Shown: positions 12,439-28,956, counted from the first letter of the stretch. The stretch: DNA of 32,000 nt from Candidatus Saccharimonadota bacterium (GCA_049296095.1 JBAQRV010000001.1:510001-542000), one strand, 5' to 3'. The notes: a model not told the origin generated them from the sequence alone. A program made the numbers and translations.

Positions 12439-12454
12439 ATATAGAATTGTCTTA

Positions 12455-12865: not shown

Positions 12866-12896
12866 TTATTATTTCCTTTCTTAGAATCTACCGTTA

Positions 12897-12905
12897 GTTA
12901 TAGCA
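12897..12905 (-). promoter_or_regulatory. Internal extended -10-like element TGcTATAAC
   Basis: The reverse complement of 12897-12905 lies in the 73-nt gap between pilin paralogs 3 and 2. Ribosome-binding site AAAGGAAA. Confidence 0.35.
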
Positions 12906-12938
12906 GATTAGCTGATATTTGTTAAGAGGTTATTCGCT

Positions 12939-13313: not shown

Positions 13314-13316
13314 TGT

Positions 13317-13607
13317 TTAAAACCTCCCAATGACAAAATTCGTAATAACAAAGGCCGAGAAAATAACTACTAAACCGACAATAGAGTAGAGGATCATGTT
13401 TTTTGCCTTCGTCACAGCACCGCTCTCTCCGCTCGATGTTGCGTACATGATACCTGCCACGATAATCACAATTACCGCAATGATGCCTGCGACGAAGTAG
13501 GCGAGATTGAGACCATTTTGGAGAAGCTCATCGCCAGTAAGGGTGGGGATGTTAACGTCCGTTCCGGGCGTTAGCTTTTGTGCAAACTGTAAAAGGTAAT
13601 ACATCAT
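13317..13607 (-). CDS. pilin-family paralog 4, lacking an N-terminal signal peptide
   Basis: 96 aa with the core VAGIMYATSSGESGAVTKAKNMILYSIVGLVVIF. No hydrophobic or basic leader. It is tightly packed, with 4-nt and 3-nt gaps to its neighbours. Confidence 0.7.
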   Translation of the reverse strand: MMYYLLQFAQKLTPGTDVNIPTLTGDELLQNGLNLAYFVAGIIAVIVIIVAGIMYATSSGESGAVTKAKNMILYSIVGLVVIFSAFVITNFVIGRF

Positions 13608-13611
13608 AGCT

Positions 13612-14070
13612 CTATCCTAATACCCTAAAGATCAAATTCAAAATCCCAATCGAGCCAAGCGCAATCGCAAGTCCGATGGTCGAGTTAATGATAGTTGTCC
13701 GTGCCTTCTCGATAACACTTGGGTTACTGCCATTTGTTAGGAAGAGAAAACCACCATACAAGATAAAGAACAGCGCCACATATCCCGCAATAATCATGCC
13801 CATTTCGATCACATTGAGGGCGATTTTCCAGATGAAGGCCGCCAGGCCACCCTCAACGTCCGCAGGAGATACAACCGCACAATTACCCGCACCATCCTTA
13901 ATGGCGAGACCACGAAACCAGACAGGCAGACCAAGAAGGGCGCGACTCTCACAATCAGGGGCAGGGGTGAATGCCGCATAAGTCGAGGCTGGTGTCGCAA
14001 TAACAGTAATAGGCGCGGCGGCAAAAACAGCAAAGGCGAGTGCGGTGAATAAAGTCTTTAATCGTTTCAT
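13612..14070 (-). CDS. divergent pilin-family paralog 5
   Basis: 152 aa. Signal peptide ..ASTYA, a Cys pair (PDC...GNC), and the core LYGGFLFLTNGSNPSVIEKARTTIINSTIGLAIAL. Confidence 0.7.
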   Translation of the reverse strand: MKRLKTLFTALAFAVFAAAPITVIATPASTYAAFTPAPDCESRALLGLPVWFRGLAIKDGAGNCAVVSPADVEGGLAAFIWKIALNVIEMGMIIAGYVALFFILYGGFLFLTNGSNPSVIEKARTTIINSTIGLAIALGSIGILNLIFRVLG

Positions 14071-14078
14071 ATCATTCC

Positions 14079-14474
14079 TTAGTTAAAGAGGCCACCCGGG
14101 ACCAAAAAGTTAAGTAGCGCATACATCCCGGCATAAGCGATGATACCGATGACGATATTCATGATAATACCCATGGCCTTCTTGACTTGCTCTGGGCTAC
14201 CCCCAGCCGAGATATACATAATAGATGCATAGACAATGCCACCGAGGGCGACAACCCCAATACCAGCGGTAAGGATATTGATCGCGAGAAGAAGGATGCC
14301 CCAAGCGCCAGTGTTTTCTACACCGCCGCCTTCGCCTGTCTGATCACAACTAATGATACTCGTTGTCACGCCACCACATTCAGCAGCAGAGGTAGAAGGA
14401 GCGACAAAGCCTATCAGTCCGACAACAAGCAATAGTCCGACGAAAAATAATTTTACTGTTTGTTTTAATCGCAT
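14079..14474 (-). CDS. divergent pilin-family paralog 6, the first gene of the minus-strand array
   Basis: 131 aa. Signal peptide ..STSAA, a Cys pair (ECGGVTTSIISC), and the core LGGIVYASIMYISAGGSPEQVKKAMGIIMNIVIGII. Confidence 0.7.
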   Translation of the reverse strand: MRLKQTVKLFFVGLLLVVGLIGFVAPSTSAAECGGVTTSIISCDQTGEGGGVENTGAWGILLLAINILTAGIGVVALGGIVYASIMYISAGGSPEQVKKAMGIIMNIVIGIIAYAGMYALLNFLVPGGLFN

Positions 14475-14542
14475 AGTTATCTATAAGATACGACAAAGTG
14501 GACGGTTGAGCAAGTTTTTCTGCATGGATAAGCACGAGGGTA

Positions 14543-14571
14543 TTGACTTTTAACGCTTCATAGTGTATAAA
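14543..14571 (+). promoter_or_regulatory. Candidate promoter of the T4SS-like operon: TTGACT, 17 nt spacer, TATAAA
   Basis: TTGACT at 14543-14548 and TATAAA at 14566-14571, in the divergent region between the pilin array and the 14632 gene. Confidence 0.45.
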
Positions 14572-14631
14572 TAAGCGTAAGTTAAAGATTCACGTAATTA
14601 TCCACATAAGTATAAGGAAACAGAATCACAT

Positions 14632-15477
14632 ATGAGTACTATCGATCGAGATCCAAAGGCAAATCAACCTCCAATCCAGGAAAGCCAGCTGCCTGATATC
14701 AACAACGTCTTACCGGAAGCCCCTGAAACACTCCAGACAACTCGTCGTGAAGTGAAAGAAGCTGGATCTAAAGAGAAGAAGAAATTTCCTTTAGGCGCTA
14801 AGATAACTGCTGGTATTGCAGGCCTCGCACTCATTGGTGGTGGTGTTGCATTAGTAGCCAATCAAGCACCTAAACAAGAACCAGTGGCAGAAGCGCCTGC
14901 AGACCCATCAAATCCAGATACGCCAGGCACTGGTGAACAAGGCGAGCTACTTCCAAATGAGATGGAGCTTGAGATTCCTGTCGGCTTAAGTGCCGAGCAG
15001 TTAGGTGAGACCTTTATTGATCGAGAGAATGCCTGGCTAAATGCGGGAACAGACAACCAAAAAATTCTTGATGATAGAACCGAAGCTGGATTAAACAATG
15101 TTTCTATGGGCGAGTTTGTAACTGACCTGGCAACAGAGTTTGCGCCATCATTCGCTAACGCCCTCTACGTTGACGATTGGCAGTCTCGATCTGATATCGT
15201 TGATCATCACTATAAGCCATTCATCGAACTTAATGCTGCTACCCTCGAACGCAACCTAAAGACTGGAGACTCAGCTTTTAGCGACGGCAAGGAGGCCTAC
15301 CACTATACACGCACCGTAGATGCTGTGCGTGAGATCTCGGCAGATGGTACCACCCGTGTTATTGAGATCGACCTAACTGACTCGAATGGTGTATCTGGAG
15401 TCTACACACTGACTTTCGTAAATATAGATGGAACCGAACGTATCGCAGCACTGAGTGTTACGATTGAATCACAGTGA
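14632..15477 (+). CDS. bitopic membrane protein, a VirB8-like candidate by topology only
   Basis: 281 aa: a charged N-terminal tail of about 55 aa, one transmembrane helix (ITAGIAGLALIGGGVALVA), a Pro-rich linker and a C-terminal globular domain of about 170 aa. Confidence 0.7.
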   Translation: MSTIDRDPKANQPPIQESQLPDINNVLPEAPETLQTTRREVKEAGSKEKKKFPLGAKITAGIAGLALIGGGVALVANQAPKQEPVAEAPADPSNPDTPGTGEQGELLPNEMELEIPVGLSAEQLGETFIDRENAWLNAGTDNQKILDDRTEAGLNNVSMGEFVTDLATEFAPSFANALYVDDWQSRSDIVDHHYKPFIELNAATLERNLKTGDSAFSDGKEAYHYTRTVDAVREISADGTTRVIEIDLTDSNGVSGVYTLTFVNIDGTERIAALSVTIESQ

Positions 15478-15593
15478 CTATAGGTGATCCGTTGATATAT
15501 AGCACCTTTGAGTAGTTTTGTGCACATCACTCGAAATCGAGACATACGCTCAAGAGGCGATTACTCTTCTAAATCCATGTCGCTTGTGCTTCA

Positions 15594-18419
15594 ATGGAAG
15601 CAGGCATGCAGTATCGCCATAATTTCAAACCAAAGCTTTCGAAAGTGTTATTGATATCACTAAAGGCACGTCTGTTCAGGACCTGCTTTTCCCTGTTTCG
15701 CAAGCCAATTAAGCTAGTCGCACTCCTAGCACTAGTCGTGTCACTGGTTATTAGCCTTACTCCATTAGCCGTAAGTGCTCAGAAGGCAGTAGGTGGTGGC
15801 ACAAAGGGAGCTATAAAGACTTCATCATTACAACCGTCCGAACAAGCATCGGCGTTTGCTTATTTTAAAGCTCTTCGTTCTTGCATGACGCGCGAGTTCT
15901 CATACCAGAACGCTGGTGGCCTGGCGGCGCAAAACTCGATGAGCCAGCAGAACGCCATTAATTTTGAATGGTTTGATGGACTATGGTGGCAGGTAGGAGG
16001 CCAAATACCGACCACCCCAAATGCTGTTAATATCGGTGCTTTCAACGACCCACGAGGGCTAAACGGTGACGGCTCACAAAACTGCGGTGACAGCGAGGGT
16101 AAGGCCTGGATTGCGAAGGCGGCGGGCCTGTGGGGGTATGATGGCGTTACACTACTATGTGCTTTAGGGTTCACTCGTCAGAGTACCAGCACACCCTGTA
16201 CGGATACAACCGCAGGGGTTACTAATGATTTCTATGCACCGCCTGGACGAGCAGCTGCATTAGACGCACTATGGCAAAGTCCCTCCGGATTTGATAATTC
16301 TTCGCTGGGTATCGCAAGCATTACAGATACTGGGGGAGCTTACCGATTATACTTAGGTAATTTCATGACACAGTGTCGCCCATCCATAGGTGGTAATGCT
16401 TATACGATTCGTGAATATGACCAGACAAAAAAGGAGTGGTCAGATGTAAGGTATGGTGCGCCCGATCGTGATCGTGGAACAGGCTATAGCGTAACGGTCT
16501 GGGATCAACAGCAGATGACTTGTGCCGAACTCGCAGCGGCTATTGACAAAAATGATGATCCAGCGGTTCAAGGATACCAAGCATGGCTAGATAATAACAA
16601 TGGTGAAGAAACGGGCACTCCTGAATTTTGCGCCCAAAACCCGAGCGCTTGTCCAGACGACAACAACACAACCACGTGTGGCGTTGAGGGTATCGGCTGG
16701 ATCATTTGCCCCGTCTTTAATTTCCTGTCAGGCGTGGCCGATGGGACTTATGGTCTCATTGAGGGCTTTTTAGTTACCGACATTAGGGTCGTAGACACAA
16801 GTAGCGGCACCTACACTGCTTGGCAAGCTATGCGAAACTTTGCAAACGTTGGCTTTGTCATTATTTTCTTGATTATTGTATTCTCACAGCTAACAGGGGC
16901 GGGTATAACAAATTACGGGGTCAAAAAAATGCTTCCTCGACTAGTTGTCGCCGCAATTCTCGTCAATGTTTCATTCTTTATTACTCAGCTTGCAGTTGAT
17001 TTGTCTAACATCCTCGGGGGTAGTTTGAGAGATGCACTTGATTTGCCAGTGTTCGATACATTTGATGGTGGATTGGGCCAGGTGCTAGGACAGGGCAATA
17101 CGTTCACTGATGTTGCGAATGGTGTATTAGCAGCTCAGTTGGGGGCCGGGGCGGTCGCTGGAGCAGCTGTAGCGATCTACTTTGGTGGGATTGGATTACT
17201 TATACCAGTTATCTTAGCGGCTGTTGTTGCGGTTATTATGACACTGTTAATCCTTATTGCACGCCAAGCAATAGTTATTTTATTAATAGTCGTATCGCCA
17301 CTCGCATTCCTAGCAATGTTACTACCAAACACCGAAAATCTCTTCAAACAGTGGCGCAAGATTCTTGTTTCTATGCTCATACTGTATCCAGCTGTCGCAC
17401 TTCTGTTTGCCGGTTCACAGCTTGCAGCGGCAATTCTCATACAGTCACTCGCTGATGATAACGTGGTTGGTAAGCTCTCTGCACTTGCGGTGATGATACT
17501 TCCTCTTTTTGCGCTTCCTGCGATACTAAAGGGCTCTCTTAATGCAGTTCCAGCAATCGGTGGACTTGCTCAAAAATTGGCAAATGGCGCTATATCTGGT
17601 ACTCGCAAGGGAAGCGCACAGGCAACGAAAGCACTTGGTCAAAGAGCAGCAGCGGGTAATAGCAAGTTTGCACAATTTGCATCGCGCAGCTTATATGGTC
17701 GTAGTCGCGAGGGTCGAAACCGACAATCATCAGCACGACGCGCTTACGAAGAACCGAGGATTAAGGATATTCAAGATCGCTGGGCAGATCAGAAAATTCT
17801 CAATGACGCAGACGCGTTGATGGGAGTGGTGCAGGCAAAAGGTGCCAGCTCTATTGAAGGTAAGGCAGCCATTGGCCGACTTGCACAAATGGGCAGCACC
17901 GACCAACTTGTCAAGATTAGACGAAGTCATTTGAAAAACGCTACCGATGAAGCTTCTTACGATCGTGCAACTCGTGATTACTTCTCAACCCTAAAAGCAA
18001 AAGATATGCGCGCAGTATACCCATCATCAGCTCTATTCAGTAAAGACCCTGTTACAGGAAAAGAAAAGGGTAAGTGGTCTGAGGTTAAAGGAGTTGACCT
18101 GCACAATATGAGCGACGCAGCAATTGATGAAGGCTGGGCATCTGGAAGTAATAATTTCCGTTCAACACTGATGGAGGTTTTAACGGATCCTGAGCAATCA
18201 AAAAATATCAACAAGTCAATTCGAGAAAAATACGCACAGTACATGACGGTTGTAGGTGAACAGGCTCAATCCTCTTCTACCCAAGGAGGTAGTGCTACGC
18301 CGAATTCACCAGCATCTCCATTAGTACCCCCACCCGGAGCCGGTTCTGGCCCTGGTGGCCTTGTCGTTCCACACGACGATCCTAATAACCCTTTCTTTAG
18401 TGGAAGTCGTAAACCTTAA
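15594..18419 (+). CDS. polytopic membrane protein, VirB6/TrbL/PrgH-like T4SS channel subunit with a large ectodomain
   Basis: 941 aa: a signal-anchor, a Cys-rich ectodomain of about 300 aa, at least 6 transmembrane helices (AWQAMRNFANVGFVIIFLIIVF..., LVVAAILVNVSFFITQLAVD...) and a hydrophilic tail of about 290 aa. The start could be 15594 or 15606. Confidence 0.7.
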   Translation: MEAGMQYRHNFKPKLSKVLLISLKARLFRTCFSLFRKPIKLVALLALVVSLVISLTPLAVSAQKAVGGGTKGAIKTSSLQPSEQASAFAYFKALRSCMTREFSYQNAGGLAAQNSMSQQNAINFEWFDGLWWQVGGQIPTTPNAVNIGAFNDPRGLNGDGSQNCGDSEGKAWIAKAAGLWGYDGVTLLCALGFTRQSTSTPCTDTTAGVTNDFYAPPGRAAALDALWQSPSGFDNSSLGIASITDTGGAYRLYLGNFMTQCRPSIGGNAYTIREYDQTKKEWSDVRYGAPDRDRGTGYSVTVWDQQQMTCAELAAAIDKNDDPAVQGYQAWLDNNNGEETGTPEFCAQNPSACPDDNNTTTCGVEGIGWIICPVFNFLSGVADGTYGLIEGFLVTDIRVVDTSSGTYTAWQAMRNFANVGFVIIFLIIVFSQLTGAGITNYGVKKMLPRLVVAAILVNVSFFITQLAVDLSNILGGSLRDALDLPVFDTFDGGLGQVLGQGNTFTDVANGVLAAQLGAGAVAGAAVAIYFGGIGLLIPVILAAVVAVIMTLLILIARQAIVILLIVVSPLAFLAMLLPNTENLFKQWRKILVSMLILYPAVALLFAGSQLAAAILIQSLADDNVVGKLSALAVMILPLFALPAILKGSLNAVPAIGGLAQKLANGAISGTRKGSAQATKALGQRAAAGNSKFAQFASRSLYGRSREGRNRQSSARRAYEEPRIKDIQDRWADQKILNDADALMGVVQAKGASSIEGKAAIGRLAQMGSTDQLVKIRRSHLKNATDEASYDRATRDYFSTLKAKDMRAVYPSSALFSKDPVTGKEKGKWSEVKGVDLHNMSDAAIDEGWASGSNNFRSTLMEVLTDPEQSKNINKSIREKYAQYMTVVGEQAQSSSTQGGSATPNSPASPLVPPPGAGSGPGGLVVPHDDPNNPFFSGSRKP

Positions 18420-18439
18420 ACTGATATACTATAACCACA

Positions 18440-19357
18440 ATGGCAACCTATAAAGTACCCCAAGACGTCGAGGCGGATGACAAGCTCATTGGTCCGTTTA
18501 GCTTTCGGCAATTCATTTATTTGATTATTGTTGCTTTGGCGGGGGCGTTAGCTTGGGGGTTGGCACAGGTGTTTATTGGGCTGGCGATTATTCCTTTGCC
18601 AATCATCCTTTTGTTTGGGGCGTTGGCATTGCCACTGCGCAAGGATCAGCCGATGGAGATTTACTTGGCGGCGATTGTGTCGTTTTACCTTAAGCCGCGT
18701 AAGCGCCTTTGGGATTCAGATGGTATCGAATCACTTATTGAAATTACTGTGCCGAAAACCGTTGAGGTGAAGCGGACGAAGGACATTACTCAGGCGGATG
18801 CCGAGCAGCGCTTTAGTTACCTGGCAAATATTGTCGATAGTCAAGGGTGGGCGATTCGCGGAGCAGGCATGCAGAGTCCTAATATTGCTATGAATAGTGA
18901 TGTTATTTTAGAAGCGCAAAGCGCACAGGATGTTCTGGATACTAGTAGTTCAGTCGGGCAAACATTCAATGCCATGATCGACAAAGAGGCCGAGCGGATG
19001 CGCCAGCAGGCGATTGATCGCATGCGCCAACCAGCTCCAACTCCTGCGCCAGCACCAATGGCAGCACCGGTCACACCTGATCCTGCCAATCCGTATAGCG
19101 CCTTTTCTTCGACACCATCGTACAACCCATATCCGACAGATATTCAGCAGGCGATGGTGCAACCAGTTAACGATCCGTCTCACCAATTTACTCCGCCCGC
19201 ACAAACAGCGCCAACCACTAGCGATAAACCGCTGTCAGCTGATATAATGAACCTTGCAAACAATGCTGATTTGTCTATTGAGACAATTGCCCATGAAGCT
19301 CATCGTCTTCAAGATAAAGAAGACATGAACGAAGAAGTGGTAATATCACTGCGATAA
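18440..19357 (+). CDS. PrgI-family / VirB3-like membrane protein with a Pro-rich C-terminal extension
   Basis: 305 aa. The N-terminus VPQDVEADDKLIGPFSFRQFIYLIIVALAGALAW plus a second transmembrane helix is the PrgI/TcpE/VirB3-type hairpin. The C-terminus is low-complexity and rich in Pro and Ala. Confidence 0.65.
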   Translation: MATYKVPQDVEADDKLIGPFSFRQFIYLIIVALAGALAWGLAQVFIGLAIIPLPIILLFGALALPLRKDQPMEIYLAAIVSFYLKPRKRLWDSDGIESLIEITVPKTVEVKRTKDITQADAEQRFSYLANIVDSQGWAIRGAGMQSPNIAMNSDVILEAQSAQDVLDTSSSVGQTFNAMIDKEAERMRQQAIDRMRQPAPTPAPAPMAAPVTPDPANPYSAFSSTPSYNPYPTDIQQAMVQPVNDPSHQFTPPAQTAPTTSDKPLSADIMNLANNADLSIETIAHEAHRLQDKEDMNEEVVISLR

Positions 19358-19387
19358 TCAGCAATAACCAGGAGTGGGAAGTAGGGT

Positions 19388-20257
19388 ATGCCGCCAAATA
19401 ATTCATTCTTCAGTCCACCCACACCTAGTGGGTCTCCCGTCCCTGCACCGGTCGCCCCGAATCCAGGGCTTACTCCTGTTGCCCCTACACCAGCGGCAGC
19501 GCCAACTATAGGATCAGGAAATGCACCAGCTCGGCCGACACCAAAAAATCCAAACTCTACTCAGAGTACTCTTCAGCTATCTGAAGTTCGCGACAATATG
19601 GTGATTATGATCGATGGTTCGTTCCGTGCGGTGATTTCATGTAAATCAATTAACTTCGACCTGATGAGCGACCGTGAGAGGGAAGGAGTTGAGTATAGCT
19701 ACCAGAACTTCCTCAACTCCCTTAACTTCCCTGTGCAGATCCTGGTACGTTCTCAGCGGGTTGATATTGGCCCGTATATCGACAAGCTTCTCGATCTGCG
19801 TCGGTCACAGGACAATATGCTCTTGGGGGTTCTCATGGATGATTACATCAACTTCATCGACTCGCTGTCCCAAGAGGCGAATATTATGGAGAAGTCTTTC
19901 TATATCGTCGTACCGTTCTTCCCACAAGGGGATGGTGCCAGTTTAGTTGAGCAGGGTAAAGGCTTCTTTGGCAAGCTATTTGCTCGGCCAAAAAATACGA
20001 TTACACGTATCGACACCGCCGCATACCAAAAAGCGAAAGAAGAAATTAAGAATCGAGTTGATGCAGTGATGGCGGGTATGTTCCAGATCGGTGTGCAGAG
20101 TGTCCAGCTCGACACAAAATCATTAGGTGAGCTGTATTACAACTTCTATAACCCAGACACAGCCGTCCGCCAGCCGCTCGGTGATTTTGAGAATACGACT
20201 GGTACATATGTAAAAAAGGCGCCAGCTGGAACGCAAGCGCCTGGAGGAGTGCTGTAA
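19388..20257 (+). CDS. soluble T4SS-associated protein, possibly a detached VirB4 N-terminal-like domain
   Basis: 289 aa: a Pro-rich N-terminus of about 60 aa, then MVIMIDGSFRAVISCKSINFDLMSDREREGVEYSYQNFLNSLNFPVQILV. The stop overlaps the VirB4 start (TAATG at 20254-20259). Confidence 0.6.
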   Translation: MPPNNSFFSPPTPSGSPVPAPVAPNPGLTPVAPTPAAAPTIGSGNAPARPTPKNPNSTQSTLQLSEVRDNMVIMIDGSFRAVISCKSINFDLMSDREREGVEYSYQNFLNSLNFPVQILVRSQRVDIGPYIDKLLDLRRSQDNMLLGVLMDDYINFIDSLSQEANIMEKSFYIVVPFFPQGDGASLVEQGKGFFGKLFARPKNTITRIDTAAYQKAKEEIKNRVDAVMAGMFQIGVQSVQLDTKSLGELYYNFYNPDTAVRQPLGDFENTTGTYVKKAPAGTQAPGGVL

Positions 20258-22116
20258 TGGCTCGTCAATCTGCCGTTGATGTCGCCGCTCAGCAACGAGC
20301 GCGCGAACAGGCTGAGGTTGAACAGGCCTTCTTAAAGGGCGTTTCGACACTTCGTGATCTGATTGCACCGAGTAGCATCGAGATTCATTCATCATATTTC
20401 CGTCTAGGTACAAAGTATGGTCGCACCCTCTACGTTTATGGGTATCCTCGTCAGATTTACACTGGTTGGCTCAGCTCACTGATTAATATTGATGAGGTGC
20501 TCGACGTCAGTATGTATGTCTACCCAGTCGATAGCCAGGTTGTCCTGACGAACTTGCGCAAAAAAGTGACTCAGCTCGAAGCGAGCACGTCGATCAATAA
20601 CGAAAAGGGGAAGACGCGTGACCCAGCACTCGAGGCGGCGATTAATGACGCTGAGGAACTGCGCGACCAACTACAACTCGGGGCTGAGCGATTCTTCCGT
20701 TTTGGTTTGTACGTGACTTTGTATGCGGACAGCCTCGATGAGCTCAACTTTGTGCAACACAAGATTGAAACGCTGTTTGGTCAGCAGTTGATTTTCAGCA
20801 AGGTAGCTTCATCCCAACAGGAACAGGGACTGAATAGTTCAATTCCTCAAATGACCGACCAATTGCAGATTCGTCGTAATATGAACACCGGCGCAATTAG
20901 CACCAGCTTCCCGTTCACTAGCGCTGACCTGACAGATAACTCCGGAATTCTCTATGGCATCAACATGCATAATAATGGTCTGGTTATTTTTGACCGTTTC
21001 AAACTTGAAAATGCCAACTTGGTTGTCTTTGCAAAATCAGGAGCAGGTAAGTCGTTTACAGTGAAGCTCGAGGCACTCCGTTCAATGATGCTGGGAAGTG
21101 AGATTATTATTATCGACCCAGAGAACGAGTATCAAAAGCTATCTGATGCGGTCGGTGGAAGTTATATTCGTCTCAGCCTCAACTCGAGTACCCGTATTAA
21201 TCCGTTTGATTTGCCGCGGGTGATTGATAGCGACGAGGCTGAGGATGCTCTGCGGGCAAACCTTGTGACATTACATGGTCTTTTCCGCCTGATGCTCGGC
21301 GGTACCCAGGTGGGTACAAATGGCGTCCCGATCTCTGCTTTAACTCCTGTTGAAGAGGCCGATCTCGACCAGGCGCTGATCGATACCTACGCCCGTGTTG
21401 GTATTACCAGTGACCCACTGACACACAACTCGCCACCGCCAACGATTAGTGACCTGTACGACACACTACTTCACATGGGTAATACTGGGCCACAGTTGGC
21501 ACAGCGTCTGCGCAAGTACACAACGGGTACTTTCGCTGGCATCTTTAGTCAGCAATCGAATATCGATATTAATAACCCGATGGTGGTGTTTAATATTCGT
21601 GACCTCGAAGATGAGCTTCGTCCAGTGGCGATGTATATTGTCCTGTCGCACATTTGGAATATCACAAGGTCACAACAAAAGAAGCGTATGTTAATTGTTG
21701 ATGAGGCCTGGCAATTGATGAAATACGATGACTCAGCTAACTTCTTGTTTAGCCTGGCCAAGCGGGCCCGTAAGTACGCCCTTGGATTGACGACTATCAC
21801 TCAAGACGTCGAAGACTTTATGAGTAGCAAGATGGGCCGCGCGATTGTTGCCAACAGTTCGATGCAATTGCTTTTGAAGCAATCTGCTAGTGCGGTTGAC
21901 GTTCTGTCAGACGTCTTCAAGCTCACCGAAGAAGAGAAAAAGCGTCTCGCTAATTTCCCAATTGGGCAGGGTCTCTTCTTTGCTGGGCAAAGTCACGTTC
22001 ATATTCAGATTCAAGCCAGCCCAACTGAACAGCAACTTATTACAACCAACCCGCAGTCGGCGATTCAGGCCGCACAGGCCGCCGAGCAGGCAGGCAACCC
22101 TCTTAATGGGGTATAA
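20257..22116 (+). CDS. virB4: VirB4-family T4SS ATPase (TrsE/PrgJ/TcpF-like)
   Basis: 619 aa. Walker A FAKSGAGKSF, Walker B MLIVDEAWQLM, and the Gram-positive VirB4 N-terminal pattern YGRTLYVYGYPRQIYTGWLSSL. Ribosome-binding site GGAGGAG. Confidence 0.92.
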   Translation: MARQSAVDVAAQQRAREQAEVEQAFLKGVSTLRDLIAPSSIEIHSSYFRLGTKYGRTLYVYGYPRQIYTGWLSSLINIDEVLDVSMYVYPVDSQVVLTNLRKKVTQLEASTSINNEKGKTRDPALEAAINDAEELRDQLQLGAERFFRFGLYVTLYADSLDELNFVQHKIETLFGQQLIFSKVASSQQEQGLNSSIPQMTDQLQIRRNMNTGAISTSFPFTSADLTDNSGILYGINMHNNGLVIFDRFKLENANLVVFAKSGAGKSFTVKLEALRSMMLGSEIIIIDPENEYQKLSDAVGGSYIRLSLNSSTRINPFDLPRVIDSDEAEDALRANLVTLHGLFRLMLGGTQVGTNGVPISALTPVEEADLDQALIDTYARVGITSDPLTHNSPPPTISDLYDTLLHMGNTGPQLAQRLRKYTTGTFAGIFSQQSNIDINNPMVVFNIRDLEDELRPVAMYIVLSHIWNITRSQQKKRMLIVDEAWQLMKYDDSANFLFSLAKRARKYALGLTTITQDVEDFMSSKMGRAIVANSSMQLLLKQSASAVDVLSDVFKLTEEEKKRLANFPIGQGLFFAGQSHVHIQIQASPTEQQLITTNPQSAIQAAQAAEQAGNPLNGV

Positions 22117-22127
22117 TAGGGGTAATT

Positions 22128-24818
22128 ATGCCGACAAGTACTCTTCCTGATAGCGACCAGGACAAAGACAAGCTGATTAGCAAGAATGAATCAGACGAGC
22201 TATTCAACCGTGTCTATGGAGACGATGTTGCACGTGGACTTAAGCAGGCGGAAGAGACAGGCTCTGCTCCAACAACAGACGAATCGGCCCGAGACGCCGA
22301 GAATAGCGGAGAGGGAATCCCCTCGACCTACGCCAATAAAGTAACTGGTAACCCAAGCAGATCAAACAATTCAAAGCTAGAAAGAGCTCTCTCGTTTGCT
22401 CGGAAGCGCGGCGGCATTATTGGATTGATTGGATTACTTAGTGTTGGTGGCGGATTAATGGCAGCTTTGTTTGCACCCACAGGCATGCTGATTAACCTTA
22501 TGGAAAATTTTTCGCTGTCGAATGATACCTCTTCGACCGCACTCGAACGACGATTTATGAAAGCGTTTGGCTTCTCAACCCAAGACGGTTCAGTAGTGTG
22601 TACAGGAAGTAAAATCAAATGTGACAAGATGGATAGGATATCGAACAAGGGGCTATATCAGCTGCAAAAAAAGTCTGGTATAGTTGCTGTCTTTGGTGAC
22701 ACCGTTTATGACGGCACGCGAACTGGATATCCTGCCACTCAACCAACACATTTTGATTTAGATCTTGGTGATGGAAAGGGGATTCAGCGAATACCAGCAG
22801 GTAGCCTCTCTCAAACTCTTGTTGATAACCCTCGGTTGGCCGCAAAAGTACTTGGCACAGGTGGCGCTGTCAACTTACGCGTCAAGTCCTGGATGGGGAA
22901 ACATATCACCAACAAATTCTACAAAAAGTTCGACATAAAGAGAAACGGAGGGTTGGCAGATGGCACCAATAACACTGGGACTTCTGCAGAGCGACGTAGC
23001 GCACTCCTTAAAAAGTTAGTAGCAAGTATTCCAGACGCTTCAGATATTTCTGGTGTCACTAGCAATATAGAAGCAAAAGTTAGTAGTCAGCTTGGAAAAG
23101 CAAAGAAGGGTGGGGCAGGATATGTCGTCGCGGTTGCGAGTTGTATTGGGGTGAAAGCGCCAATGTATGTTGCGGCAGGTGTTGCTGCCGTTCAGCTCGC
23201 CCAAATACTACCAGTGGTGATGGACGTCGTGTTGTCGCCGGGTGCAAAGGCAAAGTCCGTCGCGATTGGAAGCGGATTTACAGCCGATGATATGGAAGGT
23301 ATTGGAACACTACTCACAGAAGAAACATTGGATCCAAACACGGGCGAATATAGTTCGGCGCTTGACTCGCCGATACTCCAATCGGCGGCAGGAATAAACA
23401 CAGGAAGACCCGAGCTTTCGTCATCCCTTACACCAGGCCTCGCATATCTTACTTCACCTCTCATCATTGCATCCTTTAATGCCAGTAAGGTGACAGAGCC
23501 TGCCTGTAACGCCATCATGAGCCCGGTTGCTATGTATACCGCAATGGCAGTTGACGCTGCGGTTACCGTCGCCGCATCGGCAACAATTATAGGTGGTATT
23601 GTCAAAATAGCAGGCTCTCTCGTTATATCGGAGGTTGCCGCAGAGGTCGTCGGACCAATCCTCGCCAATGCAGCAGGGCCGACATTGGTAGAATTAGCAA
23701 AAAACGATGCAATACCCAATGCGAGGGGGGAGGCCCTCGGTGATCTTCTTGGTATTAGCGCAACCGGATTCTTTTCTGCTGGTGGTATGTCGCGACATCT
23801 TCCTGTTCTCACAGAATCTCAGGTCGCCGATTTCGCGGTAGTAAAGCAAGAAAATGATGACTTTAATAAAGAGATGGAAATCGCATCGCTCAGTCCATTT
23901 GATGTCTCTAGTCGCAATACTTTCCTAGGAAGTATTGTCTATAATCTGCAAATGGGTGTTATGTCTAGTCCAAACTATACGGGTGGGGTTTCATCAATTT
24001 TATCAAGCATTCTGAATCTCCCTGCCTTTACACTCTCGTCAAAAACAAGTGCAGCAACTGGCACCACACCGAATGATTGTAGTTATGCAAAGGACTTCGG
24101 TCTCGATACCGGCGACCCAACAACGACCCCGGCAATCAACCTTTCCGGCTTACCTTGTCCCGGTATCACGTCCGAACAGGCGAATATGCCAACTGGGCAA
24201 GCGCTTGATCTTATTGCGGACCAGGGGTGGTTTGATGAAGAGAAGGATATTAGCGACGATGCAACAATTGAAGATCTGGTCTCGAGCGGATATATCAGAG
24301 AGGAAACGCCTTTGTATGATTATATTCAGGATTGTAGTAACCCAGAGACGGGTGATTATATTTATAACTCTCCTGGGTGCACCATTAACACTGAGCCGGG
24401 TACAAAGACTGTCGCTGAACTTAATGGATCGGTAGATAACGTCCCTATCTGTGAAGGTAATGGGGAAGATATAACCTGTACTCCTGATTCTAATCAAAGC
24501 ATCGCGGTGAATCCTGATGCACTCACAGCAATACCCGTATTCTTACTTGATTACCAAGTTCACCAGATATTCAATGGTGAGGATGACAATAGTACCCAGA
24601 CCAGCGAAACTGCTACGGCCGCAGAAGAGGCGCTCGTCACAGAGGTCGAGGCTCCAATAAAATCAAATAGTGTTGCTTCTGACCAGCCCGTATATAACAG
24701 TTCACTTCTTACATACAATCCATCTTCACTAGATTGTTTTATAGACTCTAGAAACACCCTTGATAGGTGCTTACGTGATGTACAACACCTTCCTTACCAA
24801 ATACTGGGGATTGCGTGA
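22128..24818 (+). CDS. large orphan membrane protein of the T4SS-like operon
   Basis: 896 aa: a charged N-terminal tail, a transmembrane helix (IIGLIGLLSVGGGLMAALFA), Ala/Gly/Val-rich hydrophobic stretches mid-protein, and a C-terminal region of about 250 aa with 10 Cys. No recognisable domain. Confidence 0.75.
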   Translation: MPTSTLPDSDQDKDKLISKNESDELFNRVYGDDVARGLKQAEETGSAPTTDESARDAENSGEGIPSTYANKVTGNPSRSNNSKLERALSFARKRGGIIGLIGLLSVGGGLMAALFAPTGMLINLMENFSLSNDTSSTALERRFMKAFGFSTQDGSVVCTGSKIKCDKMDRISNKGLYQLQKKSGIVAVFGDTVYDGTRTGYPATQPTHFDLDLGDGKGIQRIPAGSLSQTLVDNPRLAAKVLGTGGAVNLRVKSWMGKHITNKFYKKFDIKRNGGLADGTNNTGTSAERRSALLKKLVASIPDASDISGVTSNIEAKVSSQLGKAKKGGAGYVVAVASCIGVKAPMYVAAGVAAVQLAQILPVVMDVVLSPGAKAKSVAIGSGFTADDMEGIGTLLTEETLDPNTGEYSSALDSPILQSAAGINTGRPELSSSLTPGLAYLTSPLIIASFNASKVTEPACNAIMSPVAMYTAMAVDAAVTVAASATIIGGIVKIAGSLVISEVAAEVVGPILANAAGPTLVELAKNDAIPNARGEALGDLLGISATGFFSAGGMSRHLPVLTESQVADFAVVKQENDDFNKEMEIASLSPFDVSSRNTFLGSIVYNLQMGVMSSPNYTGGVSSILSSILNLPAFTLSSKTSAATGTTPNDCSYAKDFGLDTGDPTTTPAINLSGLPCPGITSEQANMPTGQALDLIADQGWFDEEKDISDDATIEDLVSSGYIREETPLYDYIQDCSNPETGDYIYNSPGCTINTEPGTKTVAELNGSVDNVPICEGNGEDITCTPDSNQSIAVNPDALTAIPVFLLDYQVHQIFNGEDDNSTQTSETATAAEEALVTEVEAPIKSNSVASDQPVYNSSLLTYNPSSLDCFIDSRNTLDRCLRDVQHLPYQILGIA

Positions 24819-26098
24819 TGAATATCGCTAAAAGACTATCATTAGTATTTACAGGATTTATTTTCGCAATTGCGACACTGACTACTATTGGGGCTCCTGT
24901 TCGTGCGGTTGAGGTACTTTGTGATTATGACTTCTTTGACTCGAATGATATTCAGTTCTGGGATCCATGTGAATCAACGAGTTGTTCAGGATTTGATCCA
25001 GGGCAATTATCAGCAGCCTCAAACCTTGATTATAAAAAGAAGCAGATATTGAACCAGGCACAGATGGCAACGTTAGAGAAAAATCTCCCTTTCTATAAAA
25101 AGGCTGCTACGTCATCAAAAATTCCTTGGCAAATCCTTGCGACACTTCATATTGTTGAAACGGGTCTTTTGAAAGCTGGTCCAGCCAACGGTCATGGGCC
25201 GTATCAAGTGCCATCTGAAACTTATAAAATAGGTGCTTATGAAGATGCCGACTTCGAAGACGCTTCTACAAAAGCGGCGGCATATATTAAACAATTGGCC
25301 GAGGGGCGAGACCTATCAGAACAAGATAGTGTCAAATATGTTTTATTTAAACATAGCGGTGCGCAAGCGGTGTATGTACAACAGGCTAAGGATCTCGGTT
25401 TTACTGATGGGCAAGCGGCGATTGGCGAGGGGTCACCTTATGTTATGAATATTGCCGATACACAACGAGATCCAACACTTAAAAGCGTCAAGGACGGTAA
25501 GACGTGGGGTGAATTAAAGACCAGCACCGCAACCACTCTGACATATCCTGCTAAACCGTATTATGGGGCCTATGTCATTTATGCATCAATTGCCGGCATT
25601 AAACTGTCTGGTGGGTGTAATGGTGGCCTGATCTCTGGTGGCATGGATTTAGAGGAGGCAAAGGCCTTTATGCGTACCTATATAGATAGTCCTGATAGTG
25701 TTAATTATCTTGGTGGAGCCTGGTCAGATCCAGTTTTTGGACCACTAGCTAACTGTGTTAGCTTCTCGAATTATTTTGTAAATAAATACACAACCCTACG
25801 ATCAACATCAGGAATGGGTGCGACCCTGGCAGGAAATTTCCTGAGCGCACATCCTGAGGTACCAAATGGCACAGAGCCGCAGCCCTACTCTCTATTTAGC
25901 ACCCCCGGCCCAACCAGTGATGGACACACAGGTATTATTCTCGGTGTGAACGAAGAGACAGGAACAATGATCGTCGGTGACCAGGCTTGGGGGCATGCAT
26001 TACGTCTTCCGAGAGAAATGGCGATCGCAGATTTTAATCGACAGTATGGTCAACCAACGTACGCTTATCTGTCTGATTTTCTTAAGGAGGATTTGTGA
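24815..26098 (+). CDS. secreted bifunctional peptidoglycan hydrolase (lytic transglycosylase-like plus CHAP/NlpC-P60-like), PrgK/VirB1 analogue
   Basis: 427 aa with a signal peptide. SLT-like IPWQILATLHIVETG...GHGPYQV. The C-terminus has ANCVSFSNYFV...DGHTGIILGV...GDQAW, which fits a Cys-His papain-fold amidase. The start overlaps the upstream stop (GTGATG). Confidence 0.75.
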   Translation: MMNIAKRLSLVFTGFIFAIATLTTIGAPVRAVEVLCDYDFFDSNDIQFWDPCESTSCSGFDPGQLSAASNLDYKKKQILNQAQMATLEKNLPFYKKAATSSKIPWQILATLHIVETGLLKAGPANGHGPYQVPSETYKIGAYEDADFEDASTKAAAYIKQLAEGRDLSEQDSVKYVLFKHSGAQAVYVQQAKDLGFTDGQAAIGEGSPYVMNIADTQRDPTLKSVKDGKTWGELKTSTATTLTYPAKPYYGAYVIYASIAGIKLSGGCNGGLISGGMDLEEAKAFMRTYIDSPDSVNYLGGAWSDPVFGPLANCVSFSNYFVNKYTTLRSTSGMGATLAGNFLSAHPEVPNGTEPQPYSLFSTPGPTSDGHTGIILGVNEETGTMIVGDQAWGHALRLPREMAIADFNRQYGQPTYAYLSDFLKEDL

Positions 26099-26808
26099 AT
26101 TTAAGTTTTGAAGCAAGACGAAGACTCTTTATTACTGCTATTATTTTCTTTCTTGTTCTCGTCGTAACTGTAGTGTTCTTTTATGCTTTCCGTGGTAATC
26201 CGTATGGCGACGAAGTTATTATTAAGAATTATCGAGAGACAGTTAAAAACCTCTCAGGCGATTATGAGAACCTTATTATGAGTTCCTTGTATCACACGAT
26301 TGATTTAAATATGGATAATGTCCCAGAGATACAAGATGCAACAATTAGAAATGATAGTGCAACACAAACCTATGAAAAGACTGATAATGTCTATCGTGGT
26401 AGTTTTATTGTTGATATGGAAAGTATTAAACAGTCTTATTTTGTTGAATATTCATACTCGCCAGACCCTAATAGTTCAGCTATAGGTGGTTATGCAATTA
26501 TTGTTTCGTGTCTCCCCGTTGATGACTTGATCTATGGCGATTTTAACTGCAAAGATTCTCTTACTATCGAATCGGGAGATACTGATCCAATCGTTGGTGT
26601 CCTTCCTCATTCAACTCTCACTTATGAAATTAAAGCTATCGCTAATGAGGATAGCTCTGTGCGTCTTGTTATTACCTTATTACTTACTCGTGTTGATTAT
26701 AATACCCGCGAAGCAGAGGCGGTCGAGCAGTATAAACAAGAGGCTCTCAGCTGGCTCCGTACACAAGGGTATAACCCTGACAACTATTCTATTGAATATA
26801 TTTATTAA
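26095..26808 (+). CDS. bitopic membrane protein in the PrgL/VirB8 position
   Basis: 237 aa with a GTG start overlapping the upstream stop and ribosome-binding site AAGGAGG. One N-terminal transmembrane helix (LFITAIIFFLVLVVTVVFFYAF) and an ectodomain of about 200 aa. Confidence 0.7.
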   Translation: MNLSFEARRRLFITAIIFFLVLVVTVVFFYAFRGNPYGDEVIIKNYRETVKNLSGDYENLIMSSLYHTIDLNMDNVPEIQDATIRNDSATQTYEKTDNVYRGSFIVDMESIKQSYFVEYSYSPDPNSSAIGGYAIIVSCLPVDDLIYGDFNCKDSLTIESGDTDPIVGVLPHSTLTYEIKAIANEDSSVRLVITLLLTRVDYNTREAEAVEQYKQEALSWLRTQGYNPDNYSIEYIY

Positions 26809-27851
26809 TCCAACTGCACATGGTGAAAAGTATCACCCCTCGATAAAGTGTGTGTACTGGTAATCACAATCTGATGCGTTCGAATAGTATCACTTAGGGC
26901 TTTTTGGCGGCTAAGGTCGAGTTCGGAGAAGACGTCGTCTAAGAGGATGAGGGGCTTGTTGCCCGAGAGCTGCTCAATGATATCAACTTCTAGGAACTTG
27001 AGCGCTAGGACGATCGTACGGGCTTCTCCACGGGATGCAACGGCTAGGGCGGGGGAGTTGTTGAATTGAAAAATGACATCATGGCGGTGTGGTCCGACAG
27101 AAGTGTTGCCGACGAGGCGATCGCGGTCGCCGTGGGCTTGAAGTTCGGCCAGGAGTTTTTGTTTTATATCACCCACGAAAGTGTGGGAATAATGAATTGA
27201 GACGGCGTCATTTGTCTGGGCAATGTCGTGGTAGGCTTCGTTCAGACGACTATTAAGTTGTTCAATAAACGCGATGCGCTGTTCAATTAAATAAGCACCG
27301 TGATCACTAAGGGCTATATCCCAAGCAAACAACTGATCGGATGGGGTATTAAATCGTTTCAAAAGATTGTTACGCTGGCGAAGGGCGCGTTCATATTTTC
27401 TCAGAGCGACTCCATAGAGTGGATTAAGTTGCGAGATGAATCGATCAATAAACTGTCGGCGGCGAGCTGGAGAGCCGTGAAGGAGGCGGAGATCTTCTGG
27501 TTCAAATAGAACAACTGGGTATTTATGTTTTGGGGCGAGCCGGGCGGTTGTTTTTGTATCGATCACAAACTGTTTGCGAGCCGAGGGGCGAGCCGGGTCA
27601 TATTTGATGGTGCGTTTTTCTTCACCGTCGAGAATAATATCTATCTTCCACCAGGGTTGATCGGCTTGAAGAATGTCGCTATCACTACCTTTAAATGATG
27701 AGCCCTGAAGGGCTATATATAAAGATTCGAGAAGGGTTGTTTTTCCACTTCCGTTCGGGCCAGTAATAACCGTCACGCCGCTCGCCAGATCAATCTCGTA
27801 CTGACGGTGTGAGCGAACGTTTTGAACGGCTAATTTACTGACCGTTGCCAT
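26805..27851 (-). CDS. recF: DNA replication and repair protein RecF
   Basis: 348 aa. Walker A GPNGSGKTTLLESL and a C-terminal LLLDDVFSELD signature. Confidence 0.93.
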   Translation of the reverse strand: MATVSKLAVQNVRSHRQYEIDLASGVTVITGPNGSGKTTLLESLYIALQGSSFKGSDSDILQADQPWWKIDIILDGEEKRTIKYDPARPSARKQFVIDTKTTARLAPKHKYPVVLFEPEDLRLLHGSPARRRQFIDRFISQLNPLYGVALRKYERALRQRNNLLKRFNTPSDQLFAWDIALSDHGAYLIEQRIAFIEQLNSRLNEAYHDIAQTNDAVSIHYSHTFVGDIKQKLLAELQAHGDRDRLVGNTSVGPHRHDVIFQFNNSPALAVASRGEARTIVLALKFLEVDIIEQLSGNKPLILLDDVFSELDLSRQKALSDTIRTHQIVITSTHTLSRGDTFHHVQLD

Positions 27852-27855
27852 AGCT

Positions 27856-28956
27856 TTAGCTCTTTAGGGGCATAATGACGTGGTAATAATTCGTGTCTTT
27901 GAGGGTTGATTTCAAGATACATGGAGAAAGTTTACCACTAAAGCCTATTTCGATCGTGTCATCAGTTAAAACTGATAGTGCTTCAGCCAAGTAACGGGAA
28001 TTAAGGGTGATCTGACCACTCTCGTTGACGGTTGCGCTCAACTCAGAAGTGTTTTCTCCCATCTCGGAGGCAATTGAGTGGAGTGAGACAGTTTTCTTAT
28101 CCTTGTCGACAGTTAAAGTGACACTACCGCCAGATTCACGGGCGAATAGACCAGCTATTTTTGTGACACGGACAAATTCTTGCTTATCAATCACGGCGGT
28201 GATGTCTGATTTATTAGGAATCAGTTGGCGATAGTCAGGGAAATTACCATCAACTAGGCGACTAATGATCTCGGCTTCGTTAATGCGGAAACGAACCTGG
28301 GTTTCATCAAACAAAATATCAACCGTATCCGAATCTTCTACGATTGTGCGAAGTACCTCTTGAAGGGTTTGAACGGGTATAATGGCCGATACCTCACTCG
28401 TTGTTTCAACTAGGCGACGCTCAGATAAACGGTAGCCGTCAGTAGCAGCCAGGTAGAGTTGCCCCTCATGAGAGTGCCAATATACCCCTGTTAAAACTGG
28501 TCGAGTCGAGTCGGAGCTGGCGGTAATAATGGTTTGAGACACCGCTTGTTTGAAATCTTCAATATTAATTGAGTAACTGACCGATGATGACTCGTTGATA
28601 GTGGGAAGTTCTGGGAAGTCATCAGCAATAACACCATTAATGATCGAGGTGTAGTTACCTGATTTAAGATGAATATTATTGTTCACAACTTTCAATTCAA
28701 TTGAGTCCTTAGGGAGACTACTAACAAATTCTGAAATGAGACGAGCGGGGACGGTGATTGCCCCCGGCTTTGTGATCTTTGCGCCAATATATTGGGTTGT
28801 GGCAACTTCTAAGTTGGTTGCAGCGACAAGTAAACGATTACCGTCAGTTCTGAGAAGTATATTACTCAGAATAGGAAGCTGCGTTTTTGTACTGGCAACT
28901 CGTCCGACAGCTGACAATGCTCGAGCAAAATTTTCTTGTGTGACAATGAGCTCCAT
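27856..28956 (-). CDS. dnaN: DNA polymerase III beta sliding clamp
   Basis: 366 aa. The N-terminus L..AL..V.R......LPILSNILL matches, and the gene sits in dnaA-dnaN-recF synteny. Confidence 0.95.
   Translation of the reverse strand: MELIVTQENFARALSAVGRVASTKTQLPILSNILLRTDGNRLLVAATNLEVATTQYIGAKITKPGAITVPARLISEFVSSLPKDSIELKVVNNNIHLKSGNYTSIINGVIADDFPELPTINESSSVSYSINIEDFKQAVSQTIITASSDSTRPVLTGVYWHSHEGQLYLAATDGYRLSERRLVETTSEVSAIIPVQTLQEVLRTIVEDSDTVDILFDETQVRFRINEAEIISRLVDGNFPDYRQLIPNKSDITAVIDKQEFVRVTKIAGLFARESGGSVTLTVDKDKKTVSLHSIASEMGENTSELSATVNESGQITLNSRYLAEALSVLTDDTIEIGFSGKLSPCILKSTLKDTNYYHVIMPLKS

Follow-up and report, generated by a model that had tools for sequence, protein, structure and literature searches.

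What does a type IV secretion system (T4SS) do on a bacterial chromosome when it is not accompanied by genes for DNA transfer? This question is raised by a stretch of 32,000 nucleotides (nt) from a Candidatus Saccharimonadota bacterium (GCA_049296095.1 JBAQRV010000001.1:510001-542000), hereafter the window, which contains an operon of eight open reading frames (ORFs), denoted A281, B941, C305, D289, E619, F896, G427 and H237, beside recF, dnaN and dnaA. All positions refer to the whole window. We consider it very probable that the locus is a core chromosomal T4SS of Saccharibacteria, derived from a conjugation channel of monoderm bacteria (mating-pair formation class FATA, MPF-FATA), untied from DNA-processing genes and serving epibiosis.

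The window ORFs were searched against Pfam and NCBIfam, topology was predicted from hydropathy, and folds were compared with PDB and BFVD using Foldseek at a significance limit of E ≤ 0.001. A scan with one genome per species yielded 436 loci encoding a relative of the window VirB4. The best 80 of these (L001-L080), nearly all from metagenome-assembled genomes of Saccharibacteria and including Nanosynbacter TM7-053, served as the related loci for comparison. An E619 protein identical to that of the window is encoded on contig JBAQET010000001.1 of GCA_049286885.1. The NCBI product names of F896 and A281 are hypothetical proteins of Candidatus Microsaccharimonas sp., in agreement, like the best relatives, with the saccharibacterial origin suggested by an initial annotation, which had been made from the sequence alone.

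The VirB4 ATPase is predicted to be encoded as two genes, D289 and E619. E619 (20257-22116, + strand) corresponds to the C-terminal two-thirds of a full VirB4 and matched positions 174-735 of the NCBIfam model conju_CD1110 (E = 3.2e-114; 382.8 bits, cut-off 325). It also matched the Pfam families P-loop_TraG, AAA_10 and DUF87, as well as the VirB4 structure PDB 4ag5 (1.5e-52). Walker A (AKSGAGKS, residue 259) and Walker B (MLIVDE, residue 478) were both located, as expected from the initial annotation. D289 (19388-20257, +), an ORF of 289 amino acids (aa) previously counted as an extra gene, is instead the detached VirB4 N-terminal domain, TrsD/TraC-like in character: its residues 58-174 align with positions 1-118 of the CD1110 model, which E619 resumes at position 174. 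Its match to NCBIfam TrsD was weak (8.9e-5), and its precomputed Pfam assignment in the source record is PF26593 (TraC-like). Because D289 and E619 cover successive parts of the CD1110 model, we regard them as the translationally coupled parts of a split VirB4; in TAATG (20255-20259), the D289 stop and the E619 start have one base in common. D289 was an ORF of its own in 79 of the 80 related loci. Neither protein has a predicted transmembrane (TM) segment.

C305 (18440-19357, +) matched Pfam PrgI (PF12666) over residues 5-90 (4.8e-13; 49.9 bits, cut-off 27). The protein has a TM hairpin at residues 16-68 and a C-terminal extension of ~215 aa. The assignments of PrgI/VirB3, already proposed for this 305-aa protein, and of VirB4 are thus firm. 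B941 (15594-18419, +) consists of a Cys-rich N-terminal ectodomain, a TM bundle at residues 411-652 and a hydrophilic C-terminal domain; by hydropathy, an N-terminal hydrophobic segment is followed by at least six more between residues 411 and 652. TrbL/VirB6 (PF04610) was matched by 13 of its 39 aligned homologues (best 3.2e-6), and the TM core is highly conserved among them. B941 is therefore probably an extended VirB6-like polytopic membrane protein; this call, and with it the VirB6/PrgH-like assignment in the initial annotation, holds through the homologues, as the protein itself matched no Pfam or NCBIfam family. The window and its nearest relatives have a single B941-like gene. Two B941-like paralogues (730-1020 aa) were present in 25 of 57 related loci (e.g., L024, L029, L054, L042 and L074), often with a ~300-aa A281-like gene between them, as in Southlakia epibionticum.

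All eight co-directional ORFs of the operon were confirmed on the + strand at the positions originally called, and the three compact junctions quoted with them (TAATG, GTGATG and GTGA) were all read in the sequence. At GTGATG (24815-24820), the GTG start of G427 at 24815 overlaps the F896 stop codon TGA (24816-24818). The source annotation starts G427 from the ATG at 24818 (426 aa). GTGA (26095-26098) is a 4-nt overlap of G427 and H237, and the other intergenic gaps in the operon measure 116, 20, 30 and 11 nt. At the distal end, the H237 (+) stop codon overlaps that of recF (−), the two forming TTAA (26805-26808). The two convergent units thus meet without intergenic space or a terminator, and the same 4-nt overlap exists in S. 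epibionticum between recF (2737-3741) and SEML1_0004 (3738-4487) (PMC10633639).

We then assessed the mobility of the locus from its gene content and position. No relaxase, type IV coupling protein (T4CP)/FtsK, integrase or partition family was detected among the window ORFs scanned against Pfam and NCBIfam, and the 10 kb past each window edge on the source contig likewise contained no called gene of these families. The absence of conjugation genes seen in the initial annotation thus held over ~52 kb in total. Both 10-kb flanks contained housekeeping genes only: tsaD, a GDSL protein gene, a Mur ligase gene, FemAB, pgi and a MacB-type ABC transporter on the left, and yidC, jag, glycosyltransferase genes, sucCD-like genes, an ABC transporter and a GHMP kinase gene on the right. 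The order of pilin array, operon and (recF)-dnaN-dnaA-rpmH-rnpA recurred across the 80 Saccharibacteria loci. In 55 of the 57 loci whose flank was long enough, dnaN or dnaA followed downstream of virB4 at a distance of 5.0-9.2 kb. GC content ranged from 0.42 to 0.51, with no step at the locus borders. Because the gene order beside recF-dnaN-dnaA is kept in 55 of 57 related loci, we do not regard the locus as an integrated conjugative element (ICE), and the core chromosomal position proposed for it passed the synteny comparison.

The components of the system are under very different constraint. VirB4 identity to the window protein ranged from 82% to 94% across the 80 loci, with a median of 85%. 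It exceeded DnaA identity in all 42 paired loci (mean +14 points) and DnaN identity in all 56 paired loci (+20 points). This conservation is consistent with essentiality, though it is no test of essentiality. The other components diverge fast: the median identity to the window protein was 65% for D289, 52% for C305, 39% for B941, 37% for F896, 35% for H237 and 33% for G427, and A281 was detectable by tblastn in only three related loci.

Two proteins of the operon are bitopic, with one TM segment each by hydropathy, as originally described. A281 (14632-15477, +; 281 aa) has its TM segment at residues 56-77, followed by a Pro-rich linker and a C-terminal alpha+beta domain. Iterative hidden Markov model searches tied it to ~300-aa positional homologues, comprising 26 ORFs of related loci. 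Its AlphaFold2 model, built from eight sequences (two database searches yielded six and eight matches), is of low confidence (pLDDT 44) and contains four helices followed by four strands. With this pLDDT-44 model, nearly all Foldseek matches were NTF2-like folds at E = 0.004-0.2, none of them at E ≤ 0.001; they included the VirB8-like protein OrfG (6zgn) at E = 0.058, again from the low-confidence model. The positional counterpart in S. epibionticum, SEML1_0012 (278 aa, with a Tat signal), is NTF2-like (ECOD e4ec6D1) and non-essential (PMC10633639). A survey detected no VirB8 structural homologue in S. epibionticum (PMC12102498), which contrasts with the listing of SEML1_0012 as NTF2-like e4ec6D1 in Table S2 of PMC10633639. 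We consider A281 a candidate VirB8-like protein (PrgL/TraM/TcpC type), and a better candidate than H237, whose equation with PrgL is at most putative.

H237 (26095-26808, +; 237 aa), the last gene of the operon, has a TM segment at residues 6-36 and an extracytoplasmic domain for which no recognisable relative was found. Its family comprises 59 ORFs in the related loci, often with at least two copies per locus. A relationship of A281 and H237 as paralogues was rejected (hhalign probability 0.9%). Family profiles of A281, B941 and H237 gave only low-complexity or chance matches when compared with PDB sequences.

All six pilins of the initial annotation matched Pfam T4SS_pilin (PF18895), four over the gathering score and two under it. 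The solitary VirB2-like pilin gene (10524-10934, +; 136 aa; 31.7 bits, cut-off 26.6) is located between two tRNA-Ser genes, away from the main array, and encodes a signal peptide and two hydrophobic helices. The other five form an array (12455-14474, −) divergent from the T4SS operon: 12455-12865 (−; 46.7 bits), 12939-13313 (−; 44.4 bits), 13317-13607 (−; 44.0 bits), and 13612-14070 and 14079-14474 (both −; 20.7 and 20.5 bits, both under the cut-off). Secondary TrbC/VirB2 matches were obtained within the array, and the topology of its pilins is VirB2-like. The position of the array upstream of the operon is kept in related loci.

G427 (24815-26098, +; 427 aa) is, on the evidence of its family profile, a VirB1-like two-domain cell-wall hydrolase, secreted or anchored, as found in MPF-FATA systems. 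Its N-domain is lysozyme-like, with the motif HIVETG at residue 112, and its C-domain is of the CHAP/NlpC-P60 type, with Cys314 and His371; these two positions are nearly invariant in the family and both are kept in G427. The protein's own Pfam CHAP match (3.4e-4) fell below the cut-off. Within the family, Phage_lysozyme2 was matched by 42 of 47 members and CHAP, NlpC-P60 or C39 by many. The family profile matched the phi29 gp13 lysozyme (3csr) at 1.1e-24 and, weakly, amidases of the NlpC/P60 or Tse1 type. Of the SLT+CHAP architecture originally proposed, the CHAP-type C-domain was retained; the N-domain is better placed in the phi29 gp13 "phage tail lysozyme" family than with SLT. Single-sequence PDB searches with G427 and with F896 gave nothing useful. 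Extra domains were found in some G427 homologues, namely GH43 (2), GH3 (2), GDSL lipase (2), Exo_endo_phos (2), Amidase_3 (5), M23 (4) and glucosaminidase (1), several of which are atypical for self-wall remodelling.

The remaining gene of the operon, F896 (22128-24818, +), encodes a lineage-specific, membrane-anchored, mostly helical protein of 896 aa. It had no Pfam or NCBIfam match. Hydrophobic segments were found at residues 95-118, 333-370 and 473-512, and a junction motif (FLLDYQ..NGEDD, residues 805-820) precedes a 75-aa tail without a domain. The AlphaFold model, built with 73 homologues, had a pTM of 0.75, with confident regions at residues ~120-470 and 510-760. No match at E ≤ 0.001 was found for it in PDB or BFVD; the top fold matches, the pore-forming toxin SmhA and tape-measure proteins, were discarded as not significant. 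The possibility that F896 is a diverged VirB6 paralogue was likewise rejected (hhalign probability of 0.2% against the B941 family). Of the two orphan giants proposed earlier, only F896 is an orphan, the 941-aa giant being the probable VirB6-like subunit. An exhaustive profile search at E ≤ 1e-30 placed 226 representative clusters in the F family. The positional homologue in S. epibionticum, SEML1_0007 (1113 aa), is essential (PMC10633639).

Unlike F896 itself, most members of the F family end in a cell-wall peptidase. Among 43 positional homologues, the C-terminal Pfam matches were Peptidase_M23 (14), VanY (10), Exo_endo_phos (9), CHAP (3), and GH43, C39-like and C70 (one each), and the 120 best database homologues of F896 had the same C-terminal domain pattern. 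The tails of 143 full-length members, taken from the end of the scaffold onwards, were clustered. The resulting classes were VanY (56 of 143), M23 (43), a short non-homologous acidic tail (20, with the window copy among them), a LAS-like group without a Pfam match (11), C39-like (8), M15_3 (2), NlpC/P60 (1) and unclassified singletons (2). Pairs with more than 90% scaffold identity shared the tail class in 93% of cases, compared with 25-28% of pairs below 60% identity, a level close to the chance prediction from class frequencies.

The C-terminal wall peptidase of the F family is exchanged between near-identical scaffolds. The proteins P0110 (M23) and P0114 (VanY) share residues 1-849 at 99% identity; beyond these they are unrelated, with the break immediately behind NGEDD. 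At the DNA level (L087:2761-5850 and L089:431-3520), 99.0% identity extends over 2977 bp, after which all similarity ceases. The M23 form was present on two independent contigs with full T4SS context, and the VanY form on one short contig ending 22 bp past the gene, so that an assembly chimera is possible for this case.

We tentatively propose, as a reading that falls somewhat short of even odds, that members of the F896 family are anchored in the T4SS and carry exchangeable heads, which degrade the envelope and are tuned to the host cell wall. Such a carrier would combine a conserved membrane scaffold without a known fold relative, the junction motif FLLDYQ..Q.NGEDD and a recombining C-terminal peptidase. 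The heads would be of the M23, VanY/M15, C39-like and NlpC/P60 types, sometimes with an added Exo_endo_phos domain, and head-less variants such as F896 would depend on the separate hydrolase G427. By analogy, the host tuning would resemble that of polymorphic toxins and phage tail lysins. The polymorphic toxins CdiA, Rhs and LXG also have a long conserved N-terminal part, a junction motif and exchanged C-terminal enzymatic domains. Among phage tape-measure and tail proteins with lytic domains, many tape-measure proteins likewise have a helical make-up, hydrophobic helices and an M23 or lysozyme-type domain at the end. The F family has no sequence similarity or significant structural similarity to either group. 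In contrast to polymorphic toxins, no immunity gene was recognised, and neither nucleases nor pore-formers but wall peptidases are exchanged, Exo_endo_phos in some members being the exception. F896 in the window lacks any polymorphic-toxin-like terminal domain, and the likeness is an analogy for the F family only. We found no mention of head exchange in this family in the T4SS literature searched.

The locus was compared with published systems. In TM7x and across Saccharibacteria, a region with VirB4, VirB6 and VirB2 and an array of small secreted proteins was described by McLean 2020 (PMC7427843). Wang 2023 annotated SEML1_0006-0019 of S. epibionticum as an unusual Gram-positive-like T4SS, in which the pilin array is essential and coupling and relaxase proteins are missing from the locus (PMC10633639). 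By transposon sequencing, SEML1_0004-0019 were all essential at T1 and T2 with the exception of SEML1_0012, the A281 counterpart; the essentiality concerns growth on the Actinomyces host (PMC10633639). Quinonero-Coronel 2025 placed the VirB4 of Patescibacteria in a clade sister to MPF-FATA, a placement that we adopt from that study rather than from a phylogeny of our own, and found TrsD to be abundant, TrsD, PrgI/VirB3, VirB6 and VirB2 arrays of 2-11 genes to be located near virB4, the T4SS to be close to dnaA, dnaN, rnpA and rpmH, and relaxases to be few, with only 15 cases near virB4 (PMC12102498). A 2025 FEMS review counts these systems among the monoderm T4SSs; on its account they are the earliest T4SS shown to be essential, and no other monoderm system is credited with possible pili (PMC12857230).

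The closest comparison is S. epibionticum ML1, in which SEML1_0004-0019 are collinear with the window operon. In both, dnaA-dnaN-recF converges with small bitopic protein genes, followed by the hydrolase, the post-VirB4 giant, VirB4, the ~290-aa TrsD-like protein, PrgI, the VirB6-like giant and the ~280-aa NTF2-like protein; on the divergent side, ML1 has an array of six pilins and hsp20. Neither cluster has a relaxase or T4CP, and each ends in a T4SS gene that shares 4 nt with recF. ML1 differs from the window by a second VirB6-like gene (its pair being SEML1_0011 and SEML1_0013) and by a second terminal bitopic gene. F896 lacks the C-terminal Hedgehog/DD-peptidase domain of SEML1_0007, and G427 is shorter than SEML1_0006 (643 aa, with two lysozyme-like domains and a Cys protease). 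One pilin gene of the window, unlike in ML1, is displaced between tRNA genes. The clusters of Patescibacteria (PMC12102498) and TM7x (PMC7427843) are the same chromosomal relaxase-less cluster near dnaA, dnaN, rnpA and rpmH, with nothing essential that differs; the post-VirB4 giant family and its swapped C-terminal peptidases are not described in these two surveys.

The initial annotation had held that the composition of the locus was not explained by known models. This claim has to be withdrawn: the same gene set, with six pilins, one or two VirB6-like giants, a post-VirB4 giant, hydrolases, a dnaA-adjacent position and no relaxase or T4CP in the cluster, has been published (PMC10633639, PMC7427843, PMC12102498, PMC12857230). 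The identification of the locus is thus correct but already described. Possibly new are the fold of F896 without a known match, the swapped F peptidases and a VirB4 more conserved than DnaA.

The Gram-positive type originally assigned to the T4SS is borne out by the VirB4 of the CD1110 family, the PrgI-type VirB3 and the lysozyme+CHAP hydrolase, which the window has in common, along with a probable VirB6-like polytopic protein, with the MPF-FATA systems (pCF10 PrgH-I-J-K-L, pIP501 Tra, pGO1 Trs and CTn2 CD1110). A separate TrsD-like protein is also found in pGO1. The proposed collinearity with pCF10 prgH-I-J-K-L holds for the order VirB6-VirB3-VirB4-hydrolase, common to the window and the MPF-FATA channels; of the two large genes thought to be inserted, one giant only is extra, the ~900-1000-aa protein between VirB4 and the hydrolase. 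Further differences from MPF-FATA are the lack of relaxase, T4CP or oriT partners in the locus, the fixed chromosomal position, the lack of a PrgB-type adhesin and the six VirB2-like pilins, which Gram-positive systems do not have (PMC12102498, PMC12857230). The non-conjugative systems Ptl of Bordetella pertussis and ComB of Helicobacter pylori also lack a coupling ATPase in the cluster. They are diderm MPF-T systems with VirB7/9/10 outer-membrane cores and known cargo (export of pertussis toxin and import of DNA, respectively), and no homology to them was found past the common VirB4, VirB3, VirB6 and VirB2 families.

In VirB/Prg systems, membrane-located VirB3 and VirB6 are bound by VirB4, which supplies the energy for assembly and frees pilin from the membrane; local openings in the wall are made by two-domain hydrolases, and VirB8-like proteins nucleate assembly. 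In the window system, VirB4 with its detached N-domain would power assembly from a membrane docking site provided by PrgI and the VirB6-like protein. G427, together with the peptidase end of the F protein in relatives, would open the cell wall, and the pilins would be pulled from the membrane into a pilus or conduit reaching the host cell. The machine would then serve the epibiotic interaction, through protein export, molecule uptake or attachment, rather than conjugation. We rank such a host-contact conduit, whether for export or import, well above conjugation. The contact-dependent epibiont machine foreseen in the initial annotation would agree with the essentiality of the S. epibionticum orthologues on the host. 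From the domain diversity in relatives, breaching of the host wall by F and G enzymes is plausible as an added role.

Several points weigh against an epibiotic T4SS of this kind. B941 itself matched no Pfam or NCBIfam family. The VirB8-like assignment of A281 leans on a low-confidence model, and the S. epibionticum counterpart is dispensable. The functional data for orthologues consist of essentiality alone, and no pilus has been seen for these systems. A coupling ATPase may be encoded elsewhere in the genome. T4CP homologues are located far from virB4 in many Patescibacteria; the distant T4CP homologue of S. epibionticum is non-essential (PMC12102498). Finally, a 2024 perspective calls the role of the T4SS "completely unknown" and names effector delivery or nucleotide uptake.

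Nucleotide uptake leads to the first of the alternatives, an import machine, ComB-like or conduit-like, which would supply DNA, nucleotides or further molecules of the host to an organism unable to make them. Saccharibacteria do not synthesise nucleotides, amino acids or lipids, and in S. epibionticum comEC is dispensable and the T4SS essential, so that another uptake route is needed. H. pylori ComB provides a precedent for import by a T4SS, and the window locus is without the T4CP normally needed for DNA export. No ComB-specific family was matched, however, and essentiality is equally compatible with export or attachment. Import is thus possible but on balance improbable, and it is a sub-hypothesis on the direction of cargo within the epibiotic T4SS explanation rather than another identity for the locus.

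It is unlikely that the locus is chiefly a device that breaches the host wall or kills the host. Here, the T4SS would deliver wall hydrolases, with F and G as effectors, in antagonism of the X-T4SS type. The F C-termini do swap among M23, VanY, C39-like, NlpC/P60 and other peptidases, even on 99%-identical scaffolds, additional Exo_endo_phos, GH43, GH3 or GDSL domains, unneeded for remodelling of the own wall, occur in some relatives of F and G, and the G profile is weakly like Tse1, an amidase effector of the type VI secretion system. Against this, F896 of the window has no enzymatic tail, the N-terminal TM anchor and hydrophobic helices of F look like those of a fixed component rather than a secreted substrate, two-domain hydrolases are the standard self-wall openers of Gram-positive T4SSs (PMC12102498), and no immunity-like gene was recognised.

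The upstream signal-peptide proteins were first proposed for TM7x to be secreted effector subunits of a Ptl-like toxin exporter, after comparison of 4-6 Sec-signal proteins and T4SS genes with the B. pertussis ptx/ptl locus (PMC7427843), and Ptl too lacks a T4CP (PMC12102498). We consider this very unlikely: all six proteins matched T4SS_pilin and several TrbC/VirB2, with the VirB2 layout of a signal peptide and two hydrophobic helices, identity to pertussis toxin S1 is just 11% (PMC7427843), and later papers treat the proteins as VirB2-like pilins (PMC10633639, PMC12102498, PMC12857230). Least probable of all is an ICE or its remnant, with relaxase, coupling protein and integrase just past the window, which would fit the descent of the channel genes from conjugation systems and the four tRNA genes, typical ICE targets, 4-9 kb upstream, but is ruled out within the 52 kb by the flanking housekeeping genes and by synteny across genera, and further disfavoured by the conservation of VirB4 above DnaA, the even composition and the scarcity of relaxases near virB4 in the literature (15 cases; PMC12102498).

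Few machines essential to epibiotic life are known in candidate-phyla-radiation bacteria, and the saccharibacterial T4SS is among them; the window provides a further well-assembled example of it from the environmental genus Microsaccharimonas. The minimal layout of this example, in which the VirB6-like gene and the terminal bitopic gene are single and the giant is without a head, helps to define the core parts. Handles for experiment include the split VirB4 under stronger constraint than DnaA, the candidate VirB8-like protein and the new-fold giant with its swapped peptidase.

The stretch that separates the pilin array from the divergently oriented T4SS operon (14475-14631) contains a sigma-70-like match, TTGACT (14543) and TATAAA (14566) with a 17-nt spacer, which was read from the sequence and was not listed by a consensus promoter scan; it may be the promoter of the T4SS operon. 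The sole perfect TTATCCACA of the window, at 14598, is located in the same region. It is not conserved in relatives: a perfect box was found in none of 33 related intergenic regions and a one-mismatch box in one of 33. By our own arithmetic, ~0.24 perfect DnaA boxes are expected by chance per window, and control of the T4SS operon by DnaA was rejected.

Downstream of the operon, Pfam and the source gene calls confirmed the convergent neighbours recF (26805-27851), dnaN (27856-28956) and dnaA (29233-30657), all on the − strand, as originally reported. Counted from its GTG start, the longest dnaA ORF encodes 474 aa; in the source record, the product has 457 aa and starts 51 nt downstream, at 30606. 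They are followed by rpmH (30877-31014, +), identified by its translation as L34, and rnpA (31069-31422, +), identified by Pfam Ribonuclease_P and source gene calls, both usual neighbours in the origin region. DnaA-box-like 9-mers cluster at 29058, 29154, 30676, 30763 and 30784. GC skew and third-position GC skew, computed over a stitched 50.7 kb (L085, window and L083), flip sign near the pilin/T4SS divergence (~12300-15600), with a cumulative minimum at ~14.7 kb, about 15 kb from dnaA, the site of the 9-mer cluster. Depending on which of these marks is oriC, either the 12-kb T4SS operon or dnaA-dnaN-recF would be head-on to replication.

Upstream of the pilin array, four tRNA genes, three tRNA-Ser (cga, gct and tga) and one tRNA-Arg (gcg), were located within 5998-11058, all on the − strand. 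A 498-aa protein (7616-9112, +) matched no Pfam family, and tblastn detected no counterpart of it across the 80 related loci. Its gene is adjoined by a small ORF (7089-7436, −) whose sequence is ribbon-helix-helix-like by eye, and the region of the 498-aa gene may be a strain-specific insertion between conserved genes.

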